Notes under the pieces: generated by a model
What the model was told of the DNA's origin: nothing
Database searches by the model: none
The model's input: the letters and a program-made list of their open reading frames with translations, nothing else
Virus record (IMG/VR): IMGVR_UViG_3300027782_000032
Span: 126,372-190,371 of that record
Reading direction: 5' to 3' (one strand)
DNA: 64,000 nt
Source of the DNA: a virus
In this document: one piece after another, positions 14,648-59,851 of the stretch
Position numbering within the stretch: the first letter of the stretch is position 1
Layout of the letters: each line of letters begins with the position of its first letter
Position numbers and translations under genes: made by a program

Positions 14648-15698
14648 TAGGCCACTCCTTTGATGCTTCTGGCATCGACTCTCCTATGTCTTGAAACTGA
14701 GATTGGAGACGTCTCCACAACTCCATCTTTAAAGCGCCTGGGTCTTCATGCTTATCCATCTTAACTTTTATGATCTTAGACCTTGGAGCAGCCTGCTGAA
14801 GCTTGTCAACTAAAGACTCAGCCTTGTAAGCCACGTCTCCGTCTAAAGCTATAGCTATGGGCTTACCATTAAAGTTCTGTCCGATTAAAGCAAGCTGACC
14901 AGCACTACAGTCACTGCCGAATATAGCTACACCTGCCGGACCTATTGACCAAACATCTATTGGACCCTCACACACTACTATCATTGGTTGTAGCTTCGCA
15001 TTGTCTATGTTGTAAAGAAGCATGGACTTCTTCATTCCAACTGGGTTTATATATTTTTGTTTCTTCTTCAATGGGTCGTCATAAATTATTCTTGCCTGAT
15101 AACCCATTAACTTTGAACCTTGAAATATGGGTATGTAAAGTCTTTCTCTAAGGGTTGGAATAGCCATGTCGTCTATCCAGCCTACACCTAGATACTTATC
15201 AAGAACGGCTGGGTTATATCCCCTAGACTCAACATACTTTATGGCTTCGTGATCCTTGCTAAGAGACGATAGGCTTGTAAGTCTTTCTGGAGGTCTGCAT
15301 TCAGTAAGAGCTATCAATGCCTCAGAAGACATAGGCTTATCAACTACTGAAAGAGTTATCTTAGAAGACGTATTGAACAACCACATGTGAAGTTGATCTA
15401 AGTTAAGCTTACCTAGCTCGCCTCTAGTGCATGCTGTCTCGTTAAAGCAGTTTGCCATGTGTCTGTACTCAAACCATCTGTGGTTTATGTACAACCTATG
15501 TCTTGTCTCTTTACAAAAAGGACAGCAGACCCTGTAATATTCTCCATTTACTATAGAGGTAGGCCTCTCTCCATTAGATGAGGGGCGCATCACCATGCCG
15601 ACCCCTCTATTATTAACATAGACCTGACCAAACAACTTCTTAAGCTTAAAGTATAGTTCAGGGCACAACACGTCATCATAACTAGTCGAAGTGCTCAT
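14640..15698 (-). CDS. dnaG: DnaG-like TOPRIM DNA primase
   Basis: Zn finger CPFC..HRLYIN; IVVCEGPIDV; IAIALDGD. Confidence 0.85.
   Translation of the reverse strand: MSTSTSYDDVLCPELYFKLKKLFGQVYVNNRGVGMVMRPSSNGERPTSIVNGEYYRVCCPFCKETRHRLYINHRWFEYRHMANCFNETACTRGELGKLNLDQLHMWLFNTSSKITLSVVDKPMSSEALIALTECRPPERLTSLSSLSKDHEAIKYVESRGYNPAVLDKYLGVGWIDDMAIPTLRERLYIPIFQGSKLMGYQARIIYDDPLKKKQKYINPVGMKKSMLLYNIDNAKLQPMIVVCEGPIDVWSIGPAGVAIFGSDCSAGQLALIGQNFNGKPIAIALDGDVAYKAESLVDKLQQAAPRSKIIKVKMDKHEDPGALKMELWRRLQSQFQDIGESMPEASKEWPND
14704..14717. repeat. dispersed palindrome TGGAGACGTCTCCA, copy 1 (inside primase gene)
   Basis: Perfect 14-bp palindrome; read as W-R-R-L. Confidence 0.95.
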
Positions 15699-15709
15699 AA
15701 CTTTCCTTT

Positions 15710-57882: not shown

Positions 57883-57925
57883 GCTTATGCCCTCCAGGCT
57901 ATATACAGTGTACCTTAACTTACTC

Positions 57926-59851
57926 TCATATTCCAAAGATACTTTCTGCGTATCCGCGTCTAGCCACGCTTGACCATAGGATTATTCTTTTATCATTATT
58001 CCAGTTTTTAAGGTGCCACCCTCCCTGCCATAGCTGCTCGCCTATGCATATGTCTCCTCCGTTATGCCTAAGCCTTGAGTCAGGTATGTCGCACTCAGTT
58101 ATACACTCCCTTTTAATAGCCCAGCACGACCCAGACGCAAAGTGTATTTTAAATCCATTAGGGGCTGCATTTCCAGCTTTATCTCTAAAGCTTACACCTT
58201 TAAACCAAGAGCCTGTTCTTATCCAACTTAGGTGTTCTTGGTTCATGCTAAAGAAGTATCTAGCACCTAGCATACCGACACTAGGGTCTGACTTTACGTT
58301 AGTTATTACAGCTTGGCAGAGCTTATCAAGCCAATGGTTATCAACATCAGCCATAGTGTCATCATCAAACCATATTACCCATTTGTTGGTTATAGGGTTA
58401 TCTTTGTCGTGGAACATCTCTCTCATGCACGGGTATTTAAACTTGTTGCTGTCTGATCTGTAAAGAACAGATATCTGCTTGTTCTTGTGCATCTCTTCTG
58501 CCATAGCTATAGTTTCATCGCATGCCTGGTTAAGATACACTCTTAGGTCTAGCCTAGAACTTGGAACTCTAGCCAGTGCACTAAGGCAGCGCTTATGCAT
58601 ATCGAAGAACTTGCCGTACACTAGTAAACATAGTGTGACTTGTCCTCCTATCTCTTCGTGGTCCATTAGTGAGGTCAGTGGAGACGTCTCCACTAGGTTT
58701 ACAACTAAAGGCTCATGTACTTTGGCTGGCTTCAGTACAGGAAGCTCAATCTTTCTTTTGGAAGTAACATCGTTATAGTCGTCGATTGTTACCTCTACTT
58801 TTACTTTTCTACCATCTGGAAGCACTAGGCTGGTTGGCTTATCAACTGACGGTAACATGTTATTCAAACTCCAATCTGGTAATGGTGGTAATATTCCGGT
58901 TAGATAGTAGTAAAGGACAGACTCTGTTATTTTGCTGGCTCCTATCATGTGCTGGCACAATGGAACAGTCTGCCCTTCAGGCTCAAGGTGTGGATAGCTG
59001 CAGTAAGACTTGTCTCCTTCAGACTTTAAAACTTTGTTTTTCCAGCAAGCTCTAGGGCCTCTGCAGCAGTCTAGTAGACCCATGGTGTGAAGGTACTTGT
59101 GAGGAACGTTTACGTTAAGACCTTTAAAAGCAGGGTTTTCTCTTACGTAGCCTTCCCACCACCACTCTTCTCTTCCTCCTGCTAGCACTACGCATGGCTT
59201 TTGCAGAGCTGCAGCCATGTGCATAGCCATAGTTATAGTGCATATAACTCCGTCAGAATGGTGTATCAAAGCCATCAGATCTCTTAGCGACGTTTTACCC
59301 CTAAGATCTATGGCTCCTTCTATGGTTCTGTGAAGGCTGGCTGGCTTTCCACCGCTGGCTCCAACCTGTACAAACTTTACACCCATAGATCTTAGTACGT
59401 CTACAGAGTCCTGTATGTCAAAGAACCTAGGGTGCTTGGTTGTAAAGTCTGCTTTACCTCCTGACAGCACTACCCAGTACCTGCCTTCAACTGCTCTTTT
59501 GCTGAGCTCAGATTCGGATAAGTGTAGGTCAGGTTTTGGATCGGTAAGGCTAAGCTTCATTCCAGACCTTTTTTCAAAGTCGTCATAGAATGCTTGCATG
59601 AAGTGTATAGGCTCTCTACCAGCTTTCCGTATGCCATCTCCGTAGCTTAAGTTATATACAGAGGCTCCTAACCTTCTATCTTTAAGCTTTACAATGTATG
59701 GGTTGTTTTCCCATATCTCTGGAAATGGGGTTTCTACGCCTATATCTACGGTATCAGAGTATGCCTTATATAGGTCTCTAACCACAGCTGTCATTACAAG
59801 GATGTCGCCAGCGGCTCTGTGGTGCCTTAGGATTATAGTTCGCTTAGACAT
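57926..59851 (-). CDS. two-domain glycosyltransferase: GT9 (heptosyltransferase-like, GT-B) N-terminus fused to GT2-like (GT-A) C-terminus
   Basis: AAGDILVMTAVVRDL, IWENNPYI, FVQVG, IDLRGKTSLRDLMALIHHSDGVIC..TMAMHMAAALQKPCVVL; C-terminal LDLRVYLN, KYPCMR, VIWFDDDT. Confidence 0.8.
   Translation of the reverse strand: MSKRTIILRHHRAAGDILVMTAVVRDLYKAYSDTVDIGVETPFPEIWENNPYIVKLKDRRLGASVYNLSYGDGIRKAGREPIHFMQAFYDDFEKRSGMKLSLTDPKPDLHLSESELSKRAVEGRYWVVLSGGKADFTTKHPRFFDIQDSVDVLRSMGVKFVQVGASGGKPASLHRTIEGAIDLRGKTSLRDLMALIHHSDGVICTITMAMHMAAALQKPCVVLAGGREEWWWEGYVRENPAFKGLNVNVPHKYLHTMGLLDCCRGPRACWKNKVLKSEGDKSYCSYPHLEPEGQTVPLCQHMIGASKITESVLYYYLTGILPPLPDWSLNNMLPSVDKPTSLVLPDGRKVKVEVTIDDYNDVTSKRKIELPVLKPAKVHEPLVVNLVETSPLTSLMDHEEIGGQVTLCLLVYGKFFDMHKRCLSALARVPSSRLDLRVYLNQACDETIAMAEEMHKNKQISVLYRSDSNKFKYPCMREMFHDKDNPITNKWVIWFDDDTMADVDNHWLDKLCQAVITNVKSDPSVGMLGARYFFSMNQEHLSWIRTGSWFKGVSFRDKAGNAAPNGFKIHFASGSCWAIKRECITECDIPDSRLRHNGGDICIGEQLWQGGWHLKNWNNDKRIILWSSVARRGYAESIFGI
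58677..58694. repeat. dispersed palindrome, copy 6 (AGTGGAGACGTCTCCACT)
   Basis: Perfect 18-bp palindrome in the inter-domain linker; read as V-E-T-S-P-L. Confidence 0.95.

Follow-up and report, generated by a model that had tools for sequence, protein, structure and literature searches.

The 64-kb window analyzed here spans bases 126372-190371 of a 190,371-bp IMG/VR virus record (G000 hereafter, 92% complete), and the phage that it represents comes from freshwater, runoff, and estuary metagenomes of 13 studies. Written into six genes of the window is an exact 14-bp palindrome, TGGAGACGTCTCCA; no one-mismatch copies occur in the window beyond these six. Three copies (22514, 47722, and 58679) share a longer 18-mer, AGTGGAGACGTCTCCACT, and in three reading frames the element is translated as WRRL (at 14704 and 31722), VETSP (at 22514, 47722, and 58679), or GDVST (at 37424). 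An earlier note on this DNA had located the same six copies, had described the 18-mer and the peptide readings, and had judged the palindrome to be far more frequent than chance would allow. Our analysis confirms each of these observations, with 0 matches in 100 dinucleotide-preserving shuffles.

We compared the individual copies with related IMG/VR records (G001-G005), which are 69-90% identical to G000 at the nucleotide level. The copy at 14704-14717 lies in a primase-like gene, is read ELWRRLQ, and is exact in G001, G003, and G005. The 62%-PolA sister clade holds only a half site at this place, the ancestral peptide being ELWRR, and the site was thus made by substitution. The copy at 22514-22527, an 18-mer read LVETSPL in an SbcC-like gene, is limited to the G000/G005 lineage and is therefore a lineage-specific gain; G001 and G003 read ISILEPT at this place. 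At 31722-31735, an exact match is read LWRRLQ in a plus-strand open reading frame (ORF; 31497-31970) that has homologs in relatives, no minus-strand ORF extends over this copy, and an RNA-library contig from another sample runs through it unchanged. The copy at 37424-37437, also an exact match, is read GDGDVST in ORF 37020-37748, for which G001 and G003 have DGDAST and DGDSSP. Both remaining copies are 18-mers read VETSPL, one at 47722-47735 in an 848-residue ORF, where G001 keeps VETSPL beside a two-residue indel, and the other at 58679-58692 in the linker of a GT9-GT2 protein, where G001 and G005 are exact. Independent contigs from other samples, one of them from an RNA library, run through the sites, which rules out the assembly or adapter artifact that the earlier note had named as a possible source of the copies. 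Contig irregularities were seen at two places in the window. Beside the 14704 copy, an estuary-metagenome contig joins 14385 to 14700, and a divergence or loose end lies at 14723; the junction, either a recombination junction or noise, rests on one contig with a short anchor and was given no weight. At 32762-32816, Logan contigs from a runoff metagenome break, and a 57-nucleotide piece is present there at approximately double depth.

The palindrome fills the rest of the genome as well, a count that the earlier note had proposed as a check. In the whole G000 record there are 23 exact and three one-mismatch copies, separated by gaps of 7.7 kb on average (median, 7.3 kb), and the coefficient of variation (CV) of these gaps is 0.46 compared to about 0.94 for random placement, with none of 20,000 simulations being as even. 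Approximately 11 of the copies are read (S)GDVST, eight VETSP, and four WRRL, in three reading frames; four copies are intergenic, two or three more lie at gene starts, and most are inside genes, many of them mid-gene. G001-G005 carry TGGAGACGTCTCCA at the same density as G000, and we refer to this motif clade, defined by the 14-mer of G000, as the TGGAG clade. When sites with up to one mismatch are included, median spacing is 7.3-8.1 kb and CV is 0.35-0.58 in each genome from G000 to G005. In G004, 10 of the 18 sites are one-mismatch variants that fill gaps, and such variants are thus probably functional. Most mismatches are at positions 2, 5, and 6 or the corresponding positions of the other half, and none is at position 1 or 14; positions 6 and 9 are symmetric in 23 of 24 G000 copies. 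The consensus of 94 sites from five genomes is symmetric to about 20 bp (tAG-14mer-CTa) and has no asymmetry relative to transcription; there is no AT-rich flank, the AT profile at the sites being flat at 0.54-0.59.

Three of the intergenic copies in G000 (106712, 107242, and 109367; L162:6712-9380, outside the window) have identical flanks. On one side of each is a terminator whose last bases are AGCTATCA, and on the other a repeated promoter (CTTAAT-N17-CATAAT); the copies immediately precede the -35 element, centered near -42.5, and each of these promoters drives a small, nonconserved gene. Outside full sites, the half site GTCTCCA is found 39 times on the G000 plus strand and TGGAGAC six times, an imbalance that reflects coding-strand bias (GGA GAC codons) and constitutes a source of ready half sites. 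A tandem coding repeat is suggested by two 12-mers in G000, AGGAAACCAAGG, with 42 copies, and AGGCTATCAAGG, with 35.

Conservation at orthologous positions, for which the earlier note had also asked, is pronounced. When exact G000 sites were compared with G001-G004, 26 pairs could be aligned; 14/14 bases are kept in 21 of them, three have one or two changes, and two are without the site. The regions concerned are mostly 64-77% identical and the flanks are diverged; for sequences that are 70% identical, the expected number of intact sites is about 0.2. Protein alignments indicate that the sites were made by substitution and not by insertion, given that at the places read as GDVST, ETSP, or WRRLH in the TGGAG clade, outgroup orthologs carry peptides of equal length but unrelated sequence. 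Because the sites arose by substitutions that altered the encoded peptides, the constraint, as judged from these alignments, acts on the DNA and not on the peptide, as the earlier note had maintained, and overwriting of protein sequence implies that selection is strong.

Deeper relatives were retrieved with a polymerase profile (A1; polymerase identity 32-49%), and whole records were compared, with the reversed, noncomplemented motif pattern serving as the array control. The palindromes differ from clade to clade but are similarly built, usually around a central CG or pyrimidine-purine step. The 192-kb G014 carries 28 sites of TCTTA-N-CG-N-TAAGA with up to one mismatch, the sixth position being degenerate (control 0; median spacing 7.0 kb, CV 0.46, P<0.0002), and the fragment G015 carries 13 sites of the same motif (control 1; CV 0.46, P=0.005). 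G018 and G021 are complete genomes of 224 kb each. The former, with a GC content of 69%, has 35 sites of AAAACCGGTTTT (control 0; median spacing 6.2 kb, CV 0.37, P<0.0002), and the latter has 22 sites of TAACTTTT-YR-AAAAGTTA with up to two mismatches (control 0; CV 0.54, P=0.0008). Among the fragments, G016 has 16-17 sites of AATATCCGGATATT (control 0; CV 0.65, P=0.06) and G017 has five sites of TATTGGCGCCAATA (control 0; CV 0.45, P=0.14), the evenness of both being nonsignificant, and G011/G012 have TGGAGRCGYCTCCA, with four sites in G012 at a spacing of about 7.4 kb (control 0). G024, of which 200 of 208 kb are available, has 13 sites of TAGAA-N6-TTCTA. In other large viral contigs (G006-G010), there are only single matches, equal to chance. 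From these sequences, the common build is that of two 5-bp outer half sites around a four-base center, in which the middle step is CG, or any pyrimidine-purine step in G021. In every case in which much of the genome was open to testing (G014, G015, G018, and G021, from three further clades), the spacing was significantly even. The sites of G014 and G018 are offset from those of G000 by medians of 1.3 and 2.2 kb, respectively, with one site each within 100 bp, and these nonorthologous positions indicate that the arrays were rebuilt in each clade at similar density. The presence of rebuilt, evenly spaced arrays in several clades argues for selection on spacing itself. Most G014 sites are inside genes, as in G000, and the AT-rich sites of the GC-rich G018 and G017 are almost always located between a stop codon and the next ribosome-binding site.

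The best candidate reader of these palindromes is a 302-residue protein encoded on the minus strand at 20-928 of the window, which the earlier note had already put forward. Its gene is a core gene, present in 17 of 17 genomes examined, and sits in the replication/recombination module. In Pfam the protein has only a subthreshold match to DUF1016_N. An AlphaFold2 model built with 15 homologs (predicted local distance difference test [pLDDT] score 76.8) is all-helical, has no beta strands, and consists of a putative ParB/Noc-type helix-turn-helix domain (residues ~34-176) followed by three long C-terminal helices (residues 184-284). The best Foldseek matches of this model are almost exclusively ParB, Noc, Spo0J, and SopB. 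When residues 34-176 were superimposed with VIA-align onto the DNA-binding domains of Spo0J, ParB, and Noc, Z scores were 9.2-7.3 with root mean square deviations of 2.8-3.8 Å over 98-115 aligned residues, and 13 of the 14 top rows were from the ParB family. Z scores of 7-9 are suggestive of a ParB-type fold; for helical domains, values below about 13 are not conclusive. When two copies were modeled together, a symmetric interface formed by the 184-284 helices and the N-terminal helices was predicted, with a homodimer score of 0.78 (best control, 0.00), at least 81% of contacts shared between runs, and a partner pLDDT of at least 78; a score of 0.78 was reached by 20 of 30 proteins solved as one-chain pairs and by one of 23 proteins solved as single chains.

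The candidate is unlike ParB in that no CTPase domain was detected. A six-frame search for ParB_N (PF02195) gave no match in G000, G001, G014, G016, and G017, and only a subthreshold match of 12.6 bits in G018. The protein family comprises 481 clusters at E values up to 0.001, and the listed members are mostly about 230-400 residues long, too short to carry a CTPase domain in addition. Using PF13614, the one ParA-type family searched, we obtained no match to a ParA-type ATPase in G000, G001, G014, G018, and G021. Variation within the family is consistent with a role in site recognition. Within the TGGAG clade, identity is 72-89% in the turn and recognition helix (residues 88-105, DKSTVYKTITF...) compared to 33-48% in the rest of the protein, whereas between motif clades this excess is largely gone (6-44% compared to 16-20%). 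Of 21 positions that are invariant within the clade and variable across clades, 20 are within residues 9-163, which comprise the DNA-binding domain and its N-terminal flank. Taken together, the models point to a protein with a ParB/Noc-type DNA-binding fold that lacks a CTPase domain and is predicted to form a symmetric dimer.

We give an even chance to the interpretation that the palindromes are docking sites on double-stranded DNA for a phage-encoded symmetric dimer, most likely the ParB/Noc-like protein encoded at 20-928, whose binding to them we infer. One outer half site of 5 bp, with a weak extension to about 10 bp, would be read by each half of the dimer, and the dyad would be placed on the flexible central CG or, more generally, pyrimidine-purine step. 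Without a CTPase domain the reader would not be expected to slide as ParB or KorB do and would stay at its sites. It could act from these fixed sites over a limited range, either bridging them by means of the long C-terminal helices or bringing in another factor, and with such a limited range gaps would be selected against, so that selection would keep one site every ~6-9 kb across the chromosome. The earlier note had attributed the sites to a dimeric phage protein that organizes, segregates, packages, or protects the genome; the fold and the predicted symmetric dimer of the 20-928 protein now lend substance to the first part of this proposal, and binding is proposed here, for a role that might be to organize, package, protect, or regulate the genome.

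Several observations weigh against this interpretation. The Foldseek E values of the 20-928 model are weak (0.02-0.3), for a domain made only of helices, Z scores of 7-9 may stem from a common arrangement of these helices, and solved ParB dimers may have biased the dimer prediction. Divergence of the recognition helix between clades would be expected anyway at an overall identity of 16-20%, and 5-bp outer half sites with a central step would suit other dimeric enzymes as well. For even spacing there is no demonstrated mechanism by which it would serve a nonsliding protein. The arrays of G019 and G020 are weak, and G022 and G023 have the reader protein but only a partly symmetric dispersed 14-mer, GGTAAATARGAACC. 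This 14-mer is present in 15 copies in G022 and six in G023, in both orientations and often 4-6 nucleotides before a start codon or before a hairpin, and it is closer to a T4-late-type promoter (TATAAATA) than to a palindrome array. We found no gene family that is present in the array-bearing genomes yet absent from G022-G024. Nor did a test for autoregulation find a palindrome directly upstream of one orthologous gene in all clades.

The earlier note had considered the palindrome parS-like. This holds for its form, which is that of ParB/Noc-type sites, but not for the system as a whole. We rejected a ParABS partition system because the genomes searched gave no significant match to the N-terminal CTPase domain of ParB (PF02195) or to the one ParA-type family examined (PF13614) and because, in place of a few sites near an origin or centromere, 23-35 sites are evenly spread genome-wide; a candidate helix-turn-helix domain of ParB type is what the two systems have in common. 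The kind of action proposed here for a nonsliding reader resembles that of MatP, a dimer with a C-terminal coiled coil that bridges about 23 dispersed 13-bp matS palindromes and thereby organizes a domain of the E. coli chromosome. MatP differs in its ribbon-helix-helix fold, and matS sites are limited to one macrodomain and are not known to be evenly spaced. The stoperators of Cluster A mycobacteriophages are dozens of identical 13-14-bp sites that are distributed over the phage genome and co-evolve with a phage-encoded binding protein; they are asymmetric, oriented with transcription, and serve prophage immunity. By contrast, the sites described here are symmetric, no integrase or resolvase was found in the four genomes searched, and the 18-mer had no phage-related match in 185,579 prokaryotic species genomes. 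The phage is probably virulent.

The parS and NBS sites are 14-16-bp palindromes with a central CG (TATTTCCC-GGGAAATA and TGTTTCAC-GTGAAACA) that are read by a helix-turn-helix dimer, and ParB/Noc specificity can switch through a few residues (PMC7383237). The present sites share the palindrome with central CG, and the modeled fold of the candidate reader matches (Z 8-9); the absence of a detectable CTPase, of ParA, and of clustering at an origin, the even genome-wide array, and the wholesale replacement of the motif between clades are differences. On the IncP plasmid RK2, KorB acts at OB operators as a CTP-dependent sliding clamp with its partner KorA (PMC11790492). Similar to KorB-OB, the phage has many identical palindromes dispersed over a whole mobile replicon, some close to promoters and others distant, and a candidate ParB-family domain (PMC11790492). 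Unlike the KorB system, it has no detectable ParB_N and hence no sign of a sliding CTPase clamp, most of its sites are in genes and evenly spaced, and the replicon is probably a virulent phage. Cluster O mycobacteriophages have a 17-bp dyad repeat, TGTTCGGNNNCCGAACA, in 34 copies with a variable center, whose function and reader are unexplained (PMC4351075). As in our phage, tens of invariant inverted-repeat copies occur throughout the genome, between and inside genes, and the central bases vary. The Cluster O repeat differs in having 7-bp arms and a 3-bp spacer, and the accessible part of the report mentions no evenness of spacing, no replacement of the motif from one related clade to the next, and no candidate reader (PMC4351075). 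We consider it the nearest published phage case, and KorB-OB, Noc-NBS, and MatP-matS the nearest mechanistic models.

Other genes of the phage provide context for the interpretation of the array. The family A DNA polymerase (11441-14647, minus strand) has a uracil-DNA-glycosylase-like domain at its N terminus, and its identity to the polymerases of cultured phages, T5-like phages among them, does not exceed about 25%. The phage further encodes homologs of the RNA polymerase beta and beta-prime subunits, a sigma-like factor, a large terminase of the lambda gpA type, a RecA-like protein, SbcCD-like proteins, and many glycosyltransferases. A 61-residue CsrA homolog (25725-25910, plus strand; Pfam CsrA, E 5e-21) lies on the strand opposite most genes and is kept in G001, G003, G005, G015, G016, G018, G020, and G021. 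Neighboring genes on the minus strand encode a MoxR-type AAA+ ATPase (51963-53000) and a VWA/CobT-like protein (49917-51908); both occur together in the TGGAG clade, and a tblastn search of G014 did not detect such a pair. We found no phage type IIA topoisomerase, no Rfam family in the window, and, using aragorn, no tRNA in the G000 genome.

Among alternative explanations, we consider it unlikely that an enzyme nicks or cuts specifically at these sites, as at the fixed nicks of T5-like or tf-like phages; the resulting breaks would initiate recombination-dependent replication, serve to load a factor, or act as marks on the DNA. The phage does encode RecA-like and SbcCD-like proteins and helicases, and an invariant central dinucleotide with degenerate neighbors would suit a cleavage center. 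Fixed nicks are known in other phages (PMC3517423), but the motifs published for such nicks are asymmetric and not known to be evenly spaced. The palindromes are spanned by contigs, in which nicks would not be visible. Two proteins come into question as the enzyme. P0001 (270 residues; G000 75239-76051, L160:15239-16051, minus strand, outside the window) emerged from a Pfam and PHROGs screen of about 50 G000 genes absent from G014 and has an HNH-like N terminus (PHROG 3377, E 8e-45) followed by three tandem helix-turn-helix repeats, with no sequence match in the PDB. Its catalytic His is replaced by Arg (ERIDN), is lacking in five of five orthologs, and the protein is specific to the TGGAG clade and thus absent from other array-bearing clades, which makes it weak as a reader as well. 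The second is a 304-residue core protein (20632-21546, minus strand) encoded next to the SbcC-like gene and present in every searched genome that covers the region. Its AlphaFold2 model (pLDDT 90.5) matches the IS621 and ISCro4 bridge recombinases over the full length (Foldseek probability 1.0, E ~1e-3, TM 0.37-0.40), and it may be a domesticated IS110-like protein in the phage recombination module. It does not conserve the catalytic DEDD or Ser residues and has no tie to the palindromes, and we therefore rejected it as the reader; a search for additional, guide-like half sites gave no information, half sites being frequent in coding sequence. Recombinase crossover sites are ruled against by the absence of Pfam Resolvase and Phage_integrase matches in G000, G001, G014, and G018, one of which is complete. 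There is only a small probability that the sites bind a host protein that the phage exploits or titrates, with the motif varying because hosts vary. The GC contents of array-bearing phages, from 41 to 69%, imply different hosts, and the phage-encoded reader is so far a candidate. However, a co-varying candidate of this kind exists, G000 and G014 carry entirely different motifs at similar GC content and in similar habitats, and the search for the motif in candidate hosts suggested in the earlier note was negative: no 18-mer array was found in the 185,579 species genomes, only seven matches, one per genome, which is about the number expected by chance.

An equally small probability applies to replication origins or priming signals, evenly spaced to shorten the replication of a 190-225-kb genome. 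Even spacing is the expected signature of origin arrays, dimeric initiators acting on palindromes are common in viruses, and the 20-928 gene sits in the replication/recombination module. Against this, the flat AT profile (0.54-0.59) leaves no AT-rich unwinding element beside the sites, there is no GC-skew structure at them, and the ParB-type fold is not a known initiator fold. Somewhat less improbable, yet still doubtful, is a function of the sites as transcription signals (operator, enhancer, or promoter element) for the multisubunit RNA polymerase of the phage or that of the host, under a KorB-like global regulator. The phage genes for beta, beta-prime, and a sigma-like factor would fit such a function, as would the location of most G018 and G017 copies between a stop codon and the next ribosome-binding site; in the 69% GC genome of G018, this placement can also be explained by an AT-rich motif that is hard to encode in genes. 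The three intergenic G000 copies abutting the -35 element suggest that some sites may also affect transcription, as KorB operators do, which can be proximal to promoters or act from distal upstream positions (PMC11790492). Only three repeated promoters carry the site, however, most G000 and G014 copies are inside genes and many are mid-gene, and a fully symmetric site carries no direction. Finally, 202 of 228 ORFs are on one strand (minus), and the element might be an RNA hairpin in long co-directional transcripts with a role in processing, stability, or protein binding, for which the CsrA homolog would be of interest. Versions of 18-22 nucleotides form a stem of 7 bp capped by an ACGU loop (-10 kcal/mol, z approximately -3.5), and between clades the stems vary and the CG of the loop center is kept. 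We nevertheless regard this as highly improbable: single stem variants, read in the sense orientation, comprise 13 nonwobble mismatches compared to five G-U pairs, compensatory double changes are not enriched (~2/29), the stem sequence is the same in all copies of a genome, although pairing by itself would not demand this, and positions 6 and 9 are symmetric although they cannot pair in a four-nucleotide loop.

In conclusion, we report here evenly spaced arrays of a single palindrome over whole phage genomes, which are almost absent from the literature, the unexplained Cluster O repeat being a published case. Literature searches yielded nothing fitting on evenly spaced phage palindromes or on CTPase-less ParB-like phage proteins, and the motif string itself appeared only in two unrelated primer lists. 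The concrete candidate reader described here would tie such arrays to a ParB/Noc fold without a CTP switch. Going beyond docking at the sites, we tentatively suggest, as a rather speculative possibility, that a CTPase-less descendant of the ParB/Noc domain serves as an organizer of the phage chromosome, with dimers bridging palindromes via coiled coils into ~7-kb loops in the replicating genome, or that the array is a self label by which the replication, transcription, or nuclease machinery of the phage recognizes its DNA; the protein-site pair, rewritten in each clade, would then act as a lineage barcode that isolates co-infecting relatives. If the link between the arrays and this reader is true, it would represent a new way for viruses to organize or mark their chromosomes and would make available a natural collection of mutually orthogonal protein-site pairs of 14-20 bp.

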